From: an uncultured Clostridia bacterium
GTDB lineage: Bacteria > Bacillota > Clostridia > TANB77 > CAG-465
Length of the DNA stretch: 64,000 nt
NCBI GenBank assembly: GCA_947628005.1
Contig: CANQYI010000004.1
Span: forward strand, 80,042 to 144,041
Direction: 5' to 3'
The position numbers and the translations under genes are program-made. The notes under the pieces are model-generated. The model saw only the letters and a program-made list of their open reading frames with translations, had not been told where the DNA came from and made no database searches. Below, piece by piece: positions 7,720-41,075 of this stretch. Positions within the stretch are counted from its first letter, which is position 1. The number at the start of each line of letters is the position of its first letter.

Positions 7720-7748
7720 TTGACAAAATTTACATAATATTGTATAAT
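7720..7748 (+). promoter_or_regulatory. Consensus sigma-A promoter (TTGACA-17-TGnTATAAT)
   Basis: ttgaca at 7720-7725, 17-nt spacer, tgtataat at 7741-7748. Confidence 0.6.
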
Positions 7749-28178: not shown

Positions 28179-28276
28179 TAATTATAAAAAAATAAGGAAT
28201 TATTGTAAACAAACTATTGACATTATTTTTAGATTGTGTGATAATATAATTACAGGTATGGAAGGCGGTGTACAAT

Positions 28277-28531
28277 ATGCAAATTACAGATGTAAGAGTT
28301 AGAAAAGTAACTTCTCAAAATAGAATGAAAGCTATTGCCTCTATAACTATTGATGATGTATTTGTAATACATGACATAAAGGTTATTGAAAGCGATAAAG
28401 GTTTATTCATTGCTATGCCTAGTAGAAAAACTCCTAACGGAGAATTTAAAGATATAGCACATCCTATAAACACTGAAACAAGAGAAATGTTACAAAAAAC
28501 AATTATTGAAAAGTACAATGAGGCTGAGTAA
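28277..28531 (+). CDS. spoVG: Septation/sporulation regulator SpoVG
   Basis: [11 protein letters not shown]...[55 protein letters not shown] is canonical SpoVG; GGAAGG RBS 12 nt before the ATG at 28277. Confidence 0.95.
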
Positions 28532-34999: not shown

Positions 35000-37900
35000 A
35001 TGAATCCGCTAATTAATATAAAGAGTAATATATTTGAAAATATTCTACAAGATATACAAGATAAAGATATTAGTATTTCATATTTAACAGATAGTTCTAA
35101 AGCCCATATTATATATGGGCTTACTGTGCGTGGTAAAAAATCTTCACTTGTGTGTTGTGCTAACACAGTAGATGCACATAAAATGGTAACTAATTTAAAA
35201 TTTTATTCTGATATAAGTGTTGAATATTTTCCAGCAAAAGAATTGATATACTACGATATAGAAGCTGAAAGTAAAGAAAATTTAATTGATAGAATGAGTA
35301 TAATAAAAAACATATTGCTAGATAAAAATAAAAAAATTATTGTTACTACAATAGATGCTTTAATGCAAAATATGCCTGACTTTGATAATAGATTAAATAA
35401 TTTAGAGACTTATATAGATATTAATACTAAAGTTAATTTGGATGACTTTGTAAATACACTTATTAATATGGGCTACGAAAGATGTGAAAATATAGAAGGT
35501 AAATCTCAATTTGCTGTAAGAGGTGGAATAATTGATGTATTTCCAATTGAGAGTAAATTACCAGTAAGAATTGAATTTTTTGGAGATGAAATTGATAATA
35601 TAAGGACTTTTGATTTAATTACTCAAAGAAGTATAGATACATTGCATCATGTAAATATAACTTTTGTCAAAGAAAATAATATAGATAAATCAACAAAAAA
35701 TGATGCTATAAAAAAAATTAATAAATTAATTGAATCTGAGGAATGTGATACAAAATTAAAAGACTATTTAAAAGAAGATTTAGATAAGATAGAAAATGAT
35801 GATACATACGGTATTATAGATAAGTACTTTGAAATATTAGTCAAAAATAAGAAAAAATTATTAGATTACTTAAAAGATTATAATATATTTATTAATGAGC
35901 CACAGAAATGTTTAGAAAAATCATATAACTTAATTAATGAAAATCAAGAAACTTTAAATGTATTAGAGGAAAAAAATTACATATATAGACCATTTGTAGC
36001 AAAGTATTTAAATTATGATGATACTTTCGATGGCGTTAAAAATCGTATATACTTAGAAAATCTTAAAATTTCAAATTCTAATAAATCATATTCAAAAGAA
36101 TATGTCTTAGATTTTAAGGAACAAAATTTTTATAAAAACTCATTTGAGACGTTGTTATCAGATGTAAAAAAACATAAAGATTATTTAAAAATACTTGTTT
36201 TTCCTACAAAAGTTAGAGAAGAACAAGTAAGCAATTTTCTTATAGATAATAAAGTTAATGTATTACAGGTAAATGATATATTTGATGTTGATATAACTAG
36301 AAAAGATACTGTATATATAATGCAGTCTGTGCTATCAAATGGTTATGTATCTGATAATTTAAAATTGTACATTTTGACTGAATCTGTTACGGGAACAAAT
36401 TCTAAATTTAAAAAATTAAGAAAATCTAAACCTTTAGGTAGTGTTATTAATAGCTATGATGATTTGCAAATAGGGGATTATATAGTACATGAAAATCACG
36501 GTATAGGTATATATAGAGGAATTAGCACAATTAGTGTTCAAAATGTGATAAAAGATTATATAAAATTAGAATATCAAAATGGTGGAATTTTATATGTACC
36601 GATAAATCAATTAGATAGTGTTACAAAATATATAAGTGATGAAGATAAAGTAGTAAAACTTAATTCATTAAATGGAAAAGACTGGGAAAAAACGAAGAAA
36701 AATGTACAAGAACACGTATATGAGATTGCTAAAGAATTGATAAGTTTATATGCTAAAAGAGAAAAATCTAAAGGCTATGCATTTGAAAAAGATAGTCAGT
36801 GGCAAAAAGAATTTGAAGATTCATTTGAATATGAACTTACTCCCGATCAAAAACAGGCAGTTATGGATGTAAAAGCTGATATGGAAAGTGATAAAATAAT
36901 GGATAGATTGCTATGTGGCGATGTTGGATATGGAAAGACAGAAGTAGCACTTAGAGCTGCATTTAAAGCTGTAATGAGCGGAAAACAAGTAGCTTACCTT
37001 GTTCCAACTACTGTATTATCTATGCAACAATATCAAACTTTTAAATCCAGAATGGATCCATTTGGAGTCAAGGTAGAAATGCTTAGTAGATTTAAATCAA
37101 AGGCTGAACAGACTGAAATATTAAAGGGACTTATAGATGGTAAAATTGATGTTGTAATTGGAACACATAGACTTTTATCTAAGGATGTTTATTTTAAAGA
37201 TTTAGGATTTTTAATTATAGATGAAGAGCATAGATTTGGTGTAAAAGCTAAAGAAGCAATAAAAACATTAAAAGAAAATATAGATGTTTTATCTATGACT
37301 GCAACACCGATACCTAGAACATTGCACATGTCACTTGTAGGTATTAGATCTATGAGTACACTTACAGAGCCACCGCTAGAAAGATTACCAGTACATACAT
37401 ATGTTTTAGAATATGATGATGTAATTATAAAAGAAGCAATTGAAAAAGAATTGTTAAGAGATGGCCAAGTATTTTATATAAGTAATAGAGTAGAAGATAT
37501 AGAGGAAGTTACAAATAAGGTTAAAAATCTTGTACCAAATGCAAGAGTCGGATTTGCTCATGGTCAAATGTCACCAGATGAGATAGAAGATGTAATGATA
37601 AAATTTATTAATCACGATTTAGACATAATAGTTTGTACAACCATATTGGAAACAGGTATTGATATCAGAAATGCTAATACTATAATAATAGAAAATGCTG
37701 ATAAATTAGGACTTGCTCAATTATATCAAATAAGAGGAAGAGTTGGAAGGTCAAATAGACTTGCTTACGCTTATATTACTTACGAAAAAAATAAACAAAT
37801 CTCTGAAATATCTGAAAAGAGGCTTAAAGCAATTAGAGATTTTACTGAATTTGGAAGTGGATTTAAAATAGCTCTAAGAGATTTAGAAATAAGAGGAGCA

Positions 37901-38423
37901 GGAAGTTTGCTTGGAAGTAAACAACATCGGTCATATGGTTAAAGTTGGTTATGAAATGTACATGAATTTACTTGAAAGAGCAGTTGAAAAAGAAAAGAAT
38001 GCAGATAAAGAAAATAATATTGTTAAACAAAATATTAATAAAGAGGTAAAGATAGATGTAAATGTTTCAGCATATATTAGTGATGAATATATAAAAGATC
38101 CAATACAAAAGATTTTAATGTATCAGAAAATATCTAATATTTCTAATAAAGAAGAAAGTTTAGATGTAACAGATGAATTGTTAGATAGATATGGAAATAT
38201 ACCAATTGAAACACAAAATTTAATAAAAATAGTAGAAATAAGAAATATTGCAAGAGAGATTGGTGTTAATAAAATATGTGTAAATGGTGAAAATTTGTTT
38301 ATTGAAACTAATGATAGGAAATTAAGATTGACAAACAAAAAAACAAATGATATACTTGTTTACATACAGTTACAGCTAAATGACTTAAAAGAAAAATTAA
38401 ATGAAAAGGAGAGTTATACATGA
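35000..38423 (+). pseudogene. mfd: Transcription-repair coupling factor Mfd, split by a +1 frameshift (single extra C) near nt 37928
   Basis: ORFs 35000..37942 and 37911..38423 together give a full-length Mfd (UvrB-homology, RID, DEAD/helicase motifs GDVGYGKTEVALRA, DEEHRFGV, TRCF C-terminus). The join reads LLGSKQH|GHMVKVGYEMY only if the C in catCggtcat is removed. Confidence 0.8.
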
Positions 38424-39646
38424 AAAAAAATAAAGAGGAAGCAAATGTAATAGACGAAAAGAAAACAAAAAAAGAAAAAAAAGCAGAAAAAGTAAATGAA
38501 GAAAAGAATTTAGAAAAGGTTAAAGAAAAAAGACTTAAAAAGATTAACACTATAAGTTCAGATAAAATTGCTATATTTTCTATAATATTGATAGTATTAT
38601 TAATAGCTTTTGGATTATTCTTCTATTTATACTATTCACAAAATATGGTGGCAGTTGTAACTTTTGATGGTGGAAAAGTAACACGTGCAGAATATGAAGT
38701 TTATTATAAAACTTTCCAACCTTTCTTAACTCAGTATTATGGCTATCCAGAAGATGAAGTTGGAAATCAAATAGCACAAAAAGCTGCTTTAGATAAAATA
38801 ATTGTAAATGATGCTAAAGCTAAAGGTGTTACATTAAGTGATGAAGATATACAAGAAATAAATGATGTATTTAATGATGAAGAAAGAGTAAAATCCTTTA
38901 CACAAAGTGGAATTGACCTTTCTATAATGAGACAATTATATGAAAGTGATTATATGATATCAAATTATATGGAAAAATTGGCAGAAGAACTTACTGATGA
39001 TGAGGTAAAAACATATATTACTTCTACTTACGGAGAATCTTCAGATTTATATGAATACAATACAAGTCACATATTATTTAAAACAATTGATGACTCATAT
39101 CAAAGCATAAGCGATGAAGAAAAAAATGCTAAGAAGGCAAAAGCTGAAGAAGTTTTACAAAGAGCTTTAGCAGGTGAAGATTTTGCTGCTCTTGCAAAAG
39201 AATTTTCTGAAGATAGTACAGCAGATGAAGGTGGAGTATTCGTAATGTATATGGACGGAAATACAATTACTGAATATTCTGATGCAGTAAAAACTTTATC
39301 TGAAGGACAGATTTGCCCTAATATAGTAGAATCTGAATATGGATACCACATAATAAAATTAAATCAAAAAATAGAAAATGGTAGATTAAAAAATTCATCA
39401 GAAAGAGAAACTTATGTATCAGAAAAGATTAATTCATTGTCAGAAGAAAAAAATGTAAAAGTAAATGAAGAAATAATGAATAAAATTATTGAAAAAATAA
39501 AAGGTCAAACTTCAACTAGTGATGATGAAGATGCAGAAACTGAAGCAGTTGATACAGAAGATTCAACAGAATCTAGTACAGATGGTGAAGATCAAACACA
39601 GCAACAAGAAAATGTAGAACAAGAAGAACAGACAACTGCTGAATAA
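38420..39646 (+). CDS. PrsA-like parvulin-type peptidyl-prolyl isomerase, membrane anchored, acidic C-terminal tail
   Basis: N-terminal TM, SurA/PrsA-like N domain, PpiC domain (SHILFKT...GGVF...YGYHIIK), D/E/T-rich tail. Confidence 0.7.
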   Translation: MKKNKEEANVIDEKKTKKEKKAEKVNEEKNLEKVKEKRLKKINTISSDKIAIFSIILIVLLIAFGLFFYLYYSQNMVAVVTFDGGKVTRAEYEVYYKTFQPFLTQYYGYPEDEVGNQIAQKAALDKIIVNDAKAKGVTLSDEDIQEINDVFNDEERVKSFTQSGIDLSIMRQLYESDYMISNYMEKLAEELTDDEVKTYITSTYGESSDLYEYNTSHILFKTIDDSYQSISDEEKNAKKAKAEEVLQRALAGEDFAALAKEFSEDSTADEGGVFVMYMDGNTITEYSDAVKTLSEGQICPNIVESEYGYHIIKLNQKIENGRLKNSSERETYVSEKINSLSEEKNVKVNEEIMNKIIEKIKGQTSTSDDEDAETEAVDTEDSTESSTDGEDQTQQQENVEQEEQTTAE

Positions 39647-39658
39647 AAGGAGTATATA

Positions 39659-40492
39659 ATGGATATATCTTTGTGTATTAATAGTAAATCAAATGAAAAA
39701 GTAAAATTTATAAAATCTTTAAATGATAAAAAGTTTAGAATTATAAATAATGCTTTTTACTTAGAAGGTATAAAAGTTGTAAATGAAATATTAGATTCAA
39801 AAAAAGCGATAGACATTTTGTTTATCGCTTATTCTGATGAGATTTTAAAATCAACAAAACAGGGAAATAATATCTTAGAAAAAATCAATTCTAAGGATTA
39901 TACTAATATTTCACGTTATAATTTTTCAAAAAATATATTTAATTATATGTGTGATACAGTCACACCACAAGGAATATTAGTTGTATTAAATATTGAAAAT
40001 AAAAATATTGATTATTTAATAAATGATGCAAATAATAATAATGAAAATATTTTAATTATAGATAAGGTTCAAGATGCTGGAAATCTTGGAACTATAATAA
40101 GAAGTGCAAATGCATTTAAAATAAAAAATATTATTTGTATTTCAGGAACTGTAGATGCATATTCTCAAAAGGTAATAAGATCAACAATGGGGACAATGCT
40201 TAATACTAATATGATATATGTTACATATGACCAGATGAAAGCTATAAAACAAAAGTTAAATGAAAATAATTTTTTAATTGCCTCTTCTATGCTAAATGCA
40301 AAGTCTTACATTCAAGATTTAGATTTTAGTAAAAAATATGCTTTTGTATTAGGAAATGAGGCAAATGGAATAAGTAAAGAAATGCTTTCATTATCAGATA
40401 ATACATTTAAAATAGATATTAAAAGTAATGTGGAGTCTTTAAATGTTGCTGTAGCATGTGGAATAATACTTTTTAATCAATATAAGAAATAA
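39659..40492 (+). CDS. TrmH/SpoU-family RNA 2'-O-methyltransferase (RlmB-like)
   Basis: C-terminal SpoU methylase motifs (DKVQDAGNLGTIIRSA, FVLGNEANGIS, NVAVACGIILF). Confidence 0.75.
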   Translation: MDISLCINSKSNEKVKFIKSLNDKKFRIINNAFYLEGIKVVNEILDSKKAIDILFIAYSDEILKSTKQGNNILEKINSKDYTNISRYNFSKNIFNYMCDTVTPQGILVVLNIENKNIDYLINDANNNNENILIIDKVQDAGNLGTIIRSANAFKIKNIICISGTVDAYSQKVIRSTMGTMLNTNMIYVTYDQMKAIKQKLNENNFLIASSMLNAKSYIQDLDFSKKYAFVLGNEANGISKEMLSLSDNTFKIDIKSNVESLNVAVACGIILFNQYKK

Positions 40493-40582
40493 TAAAATTT
40501 ATAAAAATCTCTATATAGTATAAACTTATTTTATTTGCACAATATATAATTAGACAAATTATTAATTTGTCAGGAGGTTTTT

Positions 40583-40798
40583 ATGAAAGCTTTAAACGTT
40601 ATATTCTTAATTTTAGTTATAATAGGAGCTGTTAACTGGGGTTGCATAGGATTATTTGGTACAGACGTTGTAGGAACTATTTTAGGTGGAACAACTTCTG
40701 TAATAAGTAGAATTGTGTATACTATAGTTGGTATAGCTGGTCTTTGGTCTTTATCTTTTTTCGGTAAAGTTGATGACAAAGAGGAACAAGCTTCTTAA
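40583..40798 (+). CDS. DUF378 family small membrane protein
   Basis: MKALNVIFLILVIIGAVNWGCIGLFGTDVV signature. Confidence 0.7.
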   Translation: MKALNVIFLILVIIGAVNWGCIGLFGTDVVGTILGGTTSVISRIVYTIVGIAGLWSLSFFGKVDDKEEQAS

Positions 40799-40811
40799 AT
40801 ATAACTAAAAA

Positions 40812-40842
40812 AGGTTAGTGTGACTTATACTAACCTTTTTTG
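40812..40842. terminator. Bidirectional Rho-independent terminator
   Basis: aggttagt-loop-actaacct flanked by A5 and T6. Confidence 0.7.
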
Positions 40843-40871
40843 TTGACATATTCAAGAATTTATGATATAAT
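40843..40871 (+). promoter_or_regulatory. Perfect consensus sigma-A promoter with extended -10 and no downstream protein gene
   Basis: ttgaca at 40843-40848, 17-nt spacer, tgatataat at 40863-40871. Confidence 0.6.
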
Positions 40872-40877
40872 AACCGT

Positions 40878-41075
40878 ACGTTGTAAAAAATTGATTTTAA
40901 AGATAATTTTCTTTTTTTGTTTTATTTTATTTTATTTTGGCTTACTATATTCTTTGCAATATTTACTTTATTTTATTTTTTTATTTTTGCGTGCGAGGGA
41001 TTAGTCATATGGCCTCCTTTTTGATTGGGAAATTGAGCAGCTTTTAAAAAAGCTGCTCATTTCCTTTTTTTAGCA
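40878..41075 (+). ncRNA. Candidate small RNA (about 190 nt) from the consensus promoter to a terminator; may carry a 12-codon mini-ORF
   Basis: No ORF of 60 aa or more on either strand. Contains AT-rich ttttat-type repeats, then a GC-rich patch gcgtgcgagggattagtcatatggcctcc, then the hairpin gagcagc-ttttaaaaaa-gctgctc plus a T-run at 41031-41070. Mini-ORF 41009..41047 (MASFLIGKLSSF) follows a GAGGGA motif by 8 nt. Confidence 0.25.

Follow-up and report, generated by a model that had tools for sequence, protein, structure and literature searches.

We have found a promoter-to-terminator unit with no long open reading frame (ORF) between two convergent genes, a DUF378 gene and the sporulation gene spoIIR, in a 64,000-nt stretch of the genome of an uncultured Clostridia bacterium (contig CANQYI010000004.1; the whole stretch is called the window, and all positions refer to it). 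The unit runs on the + strand from a consensus sigma-A-type promoter at 40843-40871 to an intrinsic terminator at 41027-41071. Judging from these signals, a discrete + strand transcript is likely to exist. As for its role, we lean tentatively towards an orphan small RNA (sRNA), independently transcribed and cis-antisense to the 3′ region of spoIIR. A preliminary description of the window had proposed a candidate sRNA here; the promoter, the terminator, the non-coding character and the intactness of the unit in 13 sequences of the species speak for that proposal, while a structured body, an Rfam match and homologues in the collections searched are lacking.

A perfect promoter bracketed by terminators

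The promoter has the −35 hexamer TTGACA (40843-40848), a 17-nt spacer that ends in TGA and thus carries the TG extension (40863-40864), and the −10 hexamer TATAAT (40866-40871), scoring 12/12 plus TG. It had been ranked among the strongest in the window, and this ranking holds. By Markov-1 simulations of the 64-kb window on both strands, 0.22 perfect 12/12 sites and 0.013 sites with the TG extension are expected by chance per 64 kb; the window holds five and three, respectively. All five perfect promoters (TTGACA-N16-18-TATAAT) are on the + strand, at 7720, 10443, 19609, 31009 and 40843. The other two perfect sites with a TG extension stand 24 and 54 nt ahead of ORFs, hence sites of this kind appear to be functional in this genome; the site at 40843 is the only one of the three without a gene. 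Promoter geometry places the predicted transcription start at 40878, 7 nt past the −10 hexamer, and the base there is a purine (A or G) in all six transcript haplotypes of the species. Elsewhere in the window, a near-perfect promoter was seen at 28217, ahead of a short SpoVG-like ORF that begins at 28277.

The promoter begins one base past the T-run of another hairpin, 40807-40841, which sits directly after the DUF378 stop codon. This element is a perfect 13-bp inverted repeat flanked by A6 and T6, folding with −18.3 kcal/mol on the + strand (z = −6.2) and −14.2 kcal/mol on the − strand (z = −4.7), with a U6 tail on both strands. We regard it as a bidirectional intrinsic terminator, ancestral at this junction, that probably ends the transcripts of DUF378 and those of spoIIR too. 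Because the DUF378 gene thus has a good terminator just before the −35 hexamer, the unit is not simply a 3′ untranslated region (UTR) of the upstream gene, an explanation that the preliminary description had kept in mind.

The terminator of the unit itself is formed by a hairpin at 41027-41065 (−23 kcal/mol, z = −4.9) and a U7 run at 41065-41071, and the terminator scan calls it on the + strand only. On the − strand no U tract follows this hairpin (CCCAAUCAAAAAGG stands there instead) and no terminator was called. The unit had been described as lying between two bidirectional terminators; this is right for 40807-40841 and wrong for 41027-41065. The overlap of the hairpin and its T-run with the end of spoIIR, also described before, is real: the spoIIR stop codon (41044-41046, − strand) lies within the loop, the last nine spoIIR codons (KKGNEQLF and the stop) are encoded by the 3′ arm of the hairpin together with the U7 run, and the U7 run is the complement of the spoIIR Lys-Lys codons.

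Sequence, coding potential and predicted structure of the RNA

The predicted RNA consists, in order, of a T-rich stretch, a GC-rich patch and the terminator hairpin with U7. The T-rich 5′ body (40879-40986) does contain the ttttat-type repeats noted earlier, Tandem Repeats Finder (TRF) placing TTTTA/TTTAT repeats at 40915-40938 and 40962-40988. The GC-rich patch GCGTGCGAGGGATTAGTCATATGGCCTCC (40989-41017, + strand) is as conspicuous as had been said: it occurs once in the window and is identical in 15 conspecific contigs. It holds a GAGGG resembling a Shine-Dalgarno (SD) sequence at 40995-40999 and an anti-SD-like CCUCC at 41013-41017, followed by U5. In both the minimum free energy (MFE) and the centroid fold CCUCC and U5, which make up the CCUCCUUUUU tract, are unpaired just 5′ of the terminator.

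Downstream of the promoter the + strand has no ORF of 60 aa or more, in agreement with the earlier statement; the longest has 54 aa and begins inside the promoter. Three ORFs, of 54, 35 and 36 aa, pass through the T-rich body. They exist because (TTTTA)n-type sequence has no stops in any frame; they have no SD and no Pfam match, and indels of 1, 2, 5 and 9 nt between strains change the frame and length of all three. A coding role for these ORFs was rejected on these grounds, and since the indels are not multiples of three and the ORFs differ between haplotypes, the T-rich body is non-coding.

Tiny ORFs are present on both strands, as reported. On the − strand there is the hydrophilic MTNPSHAKIKK, which varies from 9 to 12 aa with the haplotype. 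On the + strand there is the 12-codon ORF MASFLIGKLSSF (41009-41047), with GAGGG, a 9-nt spacer, the ATG at 41009 and the stop TAA at 41045-41047. Its codons 7-12 make up the 5′ arm of the terminator and its stop codon falls in the loop, so the terminator hairpin and a ribosome translating the ORF would exclude each other. This mini-ORF is the sole + strand ORF retained in all six haplotypes; the retention is uninformative, as the ORF lies within an invariant stretch and the strains are 99.2-99.8% identical.

The non-coding sequence had been called structured, which turned out to be true of the terminator only. The full 193-nt RNA has z = −3.7 because of the terminator, and the body alone (40878-41024, z = −0.85) is not beyond shuffled sequence. 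A central helix is predicted at 40938-41014, in which a 5′ arm (40938-40958) pairs with an arm in the GC patch (40987-41014); the MFE fold, the centroid fold and RNAalifold agree on it, and its z of −1.7 is weak evidence for the helix. It would sequester the SD-like GAGGG, which is paired with UUCUU/CUCUU. Two polymorphisms in the 5′ arm keep the pairing (A-U to G-U and U-G to C-G), and T>C at 40950 strengthens the SD-masking pair. Covariance and structure analysis yielded no Rfam family and, apart from these two one-sided compatible changes, nothing that would count as covariation.

Origin of the unit by insertion

The species appears to have no genome representative in GTDB, since a scan of the GTDB genomes with the single SpoIIR protein gave no match. 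An alignment-based SpoIIR scan gave 80 loci, the closest at 53% identity. In the protein database, SpoIIR homologues are found at 90-99% identity (the same species, in ENA/Logan assemblies) and then at 55% or lower. The nearest named relatives are uncultured gut Clostridia metagenome-assembled genomes (MAGs) and 'Clostridium sp. CAG:465'. No bridging relatives were found: the gene downstream is another one in P0005 and P0008, and the contigs of P0006 stop just after spoIIR.

The closest relative, L004, keeps the synteny Mfd-PrsA-SpoU-DUF378 / spoIIR / 144-aa gene, with a DUF378-spoIIR gap of 52 nt that holds one A-run/hairpin/T-run terminator. Altogether 15 related loci (14 MAGs and the closest relative) have the convergent DUF378/spoIIR pair, with gaps of 14-88 nt; all gaps with enough room contain a single hairpin, with an A-run and a T-run at its sides, next to the DUF378 stop codon. 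The bases just after this stop codon are similar between the species and its closest relative. The single terminator in the gaps of the relatives indicates that one shared bidirectional terminator was the ancestral state. The ∼220-bp unit is therefore a lineage-specific insertion between spoIIR and this ancestral terminator. The C terminus of SpoIIR is LKKGNEQLF here and LKKS in the closest relative, so the new hairpin supplies the last six spoIIR codons; the U tract of the new + strand terminator is provided by the Lys-Lys codons that were already there (AAAAAAA on the − strand).

The DUF378/spoIIR junction is an insertion hotspot, with unrelated inserts in other lineages. At this junction L018 (3594-6113) has a 512-aa gene with its own promoter, and L022 (3594-4514) has a 236-aa gene in a 919-nt gap; L034 (3594-4483) has a similar gap of 888 nt. 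L009 (3588-3817, 228 nt) and L023 (2932-3307, 374 nt) carry non-coding inserts that are homologous to each other and different from the unit described here. In these there is a TTGAAT/TTGATT-17-TATAAT site facing spoIIR, in the same orientation as in our unit, and then a small hairpin with a T-run; the insert in L023 also has a long-range inverted repeat, GGCTAACTTTGTA...TACAAAGTTAGCC. A promoter directed at the 3′ end of spoIIR may have arisen independently in L009 and L023.

Variation within the species

The window and 12 contigs, from at least 12 samples, make up the conspecific alignment of 13 sequences; the contigs of L094 and L096 have 7-33× coverage. A search with the exact DUF378 protein gave ten more places, nine of them new, as L100 is the same Logan contig as L001; L086 and L087, also conspecific, contain just the 3′ part of the unit. 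The unit is present in every conspecific contig, and its transcribed region has six haplotypes, 194-208 nt long. The −35 hexamer, the TG and the −10 hexamer are identical in all 13 sequences, while the nearby positions 40842 (G/A) and 40853 (C/T) vary. Positions 40987-41071 are identical in all haplotypes. Flanking genes are 99.2-99.8% identical between strains (a background divergence of 0.2-0.8%), and at ∼0.4% background divergence about 0.3 changes are expected in the 3′ 84 nt. Conservation of these 84 nt as a sign of selection was therefore rejected.

The 5′ body (40879-40986) has about 12 segregating substitutions and 15 indel columns (indels of 1, 2, 5 and 9 nt), with a nucleotide diversity (π) of 0.0335. 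The corresponding values are 0.000 for DUF378, 0.0012 for SpoU, 0.008 for spoIIR and 0.000 for the other two intergenic regions (90 and 213 nt); the 5′ half is thus roughly 4-fold (spoIIR) to 28-fold (spoU) more diverse than the neighbouring genes. The 5′ 110 nt are the most variable stretch in the neighbourhood, and the polymorphism hotspot spans 40835-40986. Variants of the 5′ body fall into three haplotype blocks, with L003 and L103 as apparent recombinants. Of ten substitutions in the transcribed part, seven affect + strand adenines, although the stretch is T-rich and adenine is its minority base. This hypervariability could stem from slippage with transcription-associated mutation in an unconstrained, highly transcribed tract, from recombination that brought in a diverged allele, or from selection favouring diversity.

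A diversity-generating retroelement (DGR) was considered in view of the adenine-biased variation and of the GC patch and hairpin that follow it. It was rejected: there is no template repeat in the 64-kb window or in any locus, and the variable region is non-coding, a reverse transcriptase not having been searched for explicitly. DGR-like mutagenesis of the 5′ body is unlikely.

A candidate antisense RNA at the 3′ end of spoIIR

As we envisage the system, the consensus sigma-A promoter with its extended −10 would start transcription near 40878, and the hairpin 41027-41065 with its U7 would end it, so that the RNA would measure 194-208 nt in the various strains. The spoIIR mRNA is the one partner that can be predicted for it: over its ∼27 3′-terminal nt, the predicted RNA is complementary to the final spoIIR codons. 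In the other direction, run-on of spoIIR transcription is probable because the hairpin has no U tract on the spoIIR strand; the transcripts would read past it to the old terminator at 40841-40807, and the spoIIR mRNA would then have a ∼240-nt 3′ UTR fully complementary to the RNA. SpoIIR is the forespore-to-mother-cell signal that triggers sigma-E activation. An abundant vegetative RNA could form a duplex with the spoIIR message made in the forespore under sigma-F and so alter its stability or 3′ processing; targets in trans might also be reached through the exposed CCUCCUUUUU tract. The firing of the promoter, the end of the spoIIR mRNA and the regulatory effect are all inferred.

Several points weigh against this reading. 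Unless spoIIR transcription reads through, the strong terminator restricts the overlap to 27 nt of the spoIIR coding sequence, and hairpins without a U tract can terminate with the help of NusA or NusG. The body at 40878-41024 is not significantly more structured than shuffled sequence. In the central helix there are no double-sided changes within the species, and the two pair-keeping transitions are not significant. The variability of the 5′ part speaks against a sequence-specific function there and would fit transcribed junk as well, and the invariance of the 3′ 84 nt is uninformative about constraint, as the strains are too close. No homologue of the unit was found outside the species in the collections searched, so there is no evolutionary evidence of function. 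When the 45 initiation regions in the window were compared with CCUCC, no outlier appeared, nearly every ribosome-binding site being able to pair.

The same promoter and terminator would equally suit an sRNA acting in trans, in which the single-stranded CCUCCUUUUU between the central helix and the terminator pairs with SD regions (AAAAAGGAGG) of mRNAs from elsewhere in the genome and represses their translation, the adjacency of spoIIR being incidental. The CCUCC and U5 are indeed unpaired in both folds just 5′ of the terminator, and the CCUCC region is invariant in all haplotypes. Still, the seed is complementary to a generic ribosome-binding site, and duplex energies over the 45 initiation regions form a continuum (mean −12.9, s.d. 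3.2, best −21.5 kcal/mol) with no distinct target. We consider this reading unlikely; the trans-acting and the cis-antisense readings are not mutually exclusive. We consider it rather more conceivable, while still improbable on balance, that the unit is a transcribed relic of an insertion or deletion at the hotspot, such as a terminator joined to what is left of a lost gene (its promoter, leader, ribosome-binding site and first codons), in which case the promoter may fire and the RNA have no function. The unrelated inserts at the same junction in L018, L022, L034, L009 and L023, the arrangement of an SD, an ATG and 12 codons running into the terminator, the absence of a homologue, of significant structure and of covariation, and the highly polymorphic 5′ body with its slippage-type indels would all be expected of such a relic. 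It is harder to reconcile with a consensus promoter that, if useless, should decay fast in a compact genome of 27% GC. All 14 specified promoter positions and the terminator are intact in the 13 sequences while adjacent bases vary, which is a weak argument at so low a divergence (P about 0.3); a π of 0.034 against 0 in other intergenic regions is unlike simple neutrality; and the 512-aa protein of L018, the sole one compared at its start, does not begin with anything like MASFLIGK.

The mini-ORF raises the prospect of a micropeptide or leader-peptide switch, to which we give little credence. A ribosome on the 12 codons would block the hairpin and let transcription continue antisense to spoIIR in the direction of the 144-aa gene at 41857 (an excludon-like arrangement), with the SD-hiding helix setting the frequency; or else the peptide itself would be the product. 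This is suggested by the layout of GAGGG, spacer, ATG and 12 codons, with codons 7-12 in the 5′ arm and the stop in the loop, by the predicted pairing of the SD with UUCUU/CUCUU, which T>C at 40950 strengthens, and by the fact that no other ORF is preserved in the six haplotypes. Since the ORF lies within a stretch of zero polymorphism, however, its preservation says nothing; moreover, a stable antiterminator fold is not visible, no sense gene lies directly behind the terminator, Rfam detects no riboswitch or T-box, and 12-aa products are seldom functional alone. That the promoter is merely a chance resemblance in AT-rich DNA, with no transcription unit behind it, can hardly be believed. Loose promoter-like matches are common at 26.6% GC (36 were found in 3 kb, with 25.6 expected), but a perfect 12/12 site with TG is expected far less than once in the window, as given above; all five perfect sites are on the gene-rich + strand, and this one lies exactly between one terminator and another that is oriented for the + strand.

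An extended version of the cis-antisense reading can be put forward only as speculation with slim prospects. The unit would be a fast-evolving, recently acquired riboregulator of sporulation timing, its vegetative RNA buffering spoIIR through the 3′ UTR and ribosomes on the 12-codon ORF gating read-through to a full spoIIR antisense RNA; the 5′ hypervariability would then reflect diversifying selection or transcription-associated mutagenesis.

If the cis-antisense reading is correct, a sporulation checkpoint gene has gained an antisense regulator by a recent, species-specific insertion. The locus would illustrate the birth of an sRNA, with a promoter and a hairpin placed between a stop codon and a terminator and Lys codons borrowed as the U tract, and it would offer a handle on the timing of sigma-E activation in a clade of uncultured gut Clostridia near 'Clostridium sp. 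CAG:465'. A mere transcribed relic would be nothing more than what an insertion hotspot ordinarily leaves behind. In either case no new class of element is involved, and no long-standing question is made directly testable.

Comparison with known systems and database searches

In Bacillus subtilis, bsrG/SR4 is a 3′-overlapping antisense pair whose antisense RNA promotes RNase III-dependent decay (PMC3834814), and RNase III-dependent antisense pairs of Firmicutes have been described (PMC3531473). The unit is like this system in that a small RNA, predicted to be transcribed convergently from a sigma-A promoter and ended by a terminator of its own, would be the complement of the 3′ part of a neighbouring mRNA; by analogy, duplex formation and RNase III-type decay would be the expected mode of action. 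Unlike bsrG/SR4, the partner here is spoIIR, a gene of sporulation signalling and not of a small hydrophobic toxin; no conserved toxin ORF with a ribosome-binding site is present, there is no sequence homology, and the long overlap depends on the inferred read-through from spoIIR.

The ubiG-mccBA operon of C. acetobutylicum is controlled by an S-box-controlled antisense RNA from a convergent promoter gated by a conditional terminator (PMC2566862), and this class of conditional-terminator antisense RNAs has been reviewed (PMC9943018). The two loci share a promoter downstream of and convergent with the target, a leader of ∼150-200 nt and a terminator at the 3′ end of the target, and here too read-through would give an antisense RNA. 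They differ in that Rfam finds no riboswitch, T-box or other known sensor in our unit, no antiterminator is visible, and in place of a conserved aptamer the leader has hypervariable, U-rich sequence of low complexity. Antisense transcription gated by a riboswitch or T-box was rejected for these reasons, no aptamer or T-box being found with Rfam and the terminator being the only stable fold at the 3′ end.

Trans-acting sRNAs of the RsaE/RoxS type in low-GC Gram-positive bacteria pair with Shine-Dalgarno sequences through C-rich seeds. The unit would resemble them as a short sigma-A-driven RNA with a predicted unpaired C-rich motif and an intrinsic terminator, and departs from them in having no Rfam match, a single CCUCC instead of several UCCC loop motifs, and a range of one species. 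In the leader-peptide attenuator of E. coli pyrBI, a translating ribosome blocks formation of the terminator. As in pyrBI, the terminator shares its 5′ arm with a short ORF, and there is a U-rich tract upstream; unlike in pyrBI, this tract precedes the ribosome-binding site and is not within the ORF, and no sense gene follows the terminator. A type I toxin-antitoxin system was also rejected, as the hydrophobic ORFs of the T-rich body have no SD and shift frame from one haplotype to another, and the mini-ORF on the − strand encodes a hydrophilic peptide.

Rfam 15, at the gathering level, gave no match in the whole window. The best matches by E-value in 40400-41500 are sub-threshold look-alikes of terminators, including STnc390 on the DUF378 terminator (23.5 bits, threshold 50) and STnc240 (22.9 bits, threshold 55). 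No tRNA or tmRNA genes were found in the window. Neither the window nor the 93 loci (513 kb) contain a second copy or a repeat family, as judged by pattern search, blastn with word size 7 and nhmmer. The exact GC patch had no match in JGI metagenome contigs or viral contigs, and blastn of the whole unit against phage and plasmid collections gave only a 44-nt low-complexity match, in a Flavobacterium phage. In the literature search we found no report of an antisense RNA or sRNA at spoIIR.

The unit has the sequence features generally asked of an independent sRNA gene, namely its own promoter, its own Rho-independent terminator, an intergenic position and no conserved ORF. Cross-species conservation of structure, or covariation, which is also generally asked, is missing, the unit being absent from all related loci. 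It matches no catalogued family, while its kind, an sRNA or cis-antisense gene running from promoter to terminator, is well known. On the evidence of these searches, the unit appears to be restricted to one uncultured species.

Neighbouring genes and other observations

The window has 26.6% GC, and its genes are tightly packed and nearly all on the + strand. The local order is mfd, a prsA-like rotamase gene (38420-39646), a gene for a SpoU-family methyltransferase (39659-40492) and the DUF378 gene (40583-40798, + strand; 71 aa; Pfam PF04070, E = 5.6e-23), whose protein is 100% identical across all conspecific contigs. The convergent neighbour, which had been named spoIIR from the outset, is correctly identified (41044-41643, − strand; 199 aa; Pfam PF09551 Spore_II_R, E = 1.1e-28). 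With 14 segregating sites in 41071-41643, the π of spoIIR is several-fold above that of SpoU, DUF378 and prsA (0-0.0025). The next + strand gene after the unit, the 144-aa gene at 41857, is 790 nt away, past antisense spoIIR, and has a promoter-like site of its own at 41802.

Beyond spoIIR on its upstream side, the conspecific contig L003 departs from the window past 41979 and has there an 83-aa ORF with a weak BofC_C match; a structural variant or a chimeric assembly at low coverage would account for this.

The mfd gene is split into ORFs of 980 and 170 aa at 37911-37942 (about 37926) by an apparent 1-nt insertion. The break reads CAT C GGT CAT ATG GTT AAA, where ...QH GHMVKVGYEMY is expected. 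The break is the same in L001 and L002, whose gene calls are equally split, while the relative L004 has a single ORF of 1136 aa. It is either a genuine frameshift or pseudogene or a case of recoding, and not an assembly error of one sample. In L002, mfd also has five substitutions within 18 nt (window positions 37687-37704), all at adenines (A>T, A>G, A>T, A>G, A>G); the cluster is seen in one contig at about 3× coverage and could be an error, a recombination patch or targeted mutagenesis.

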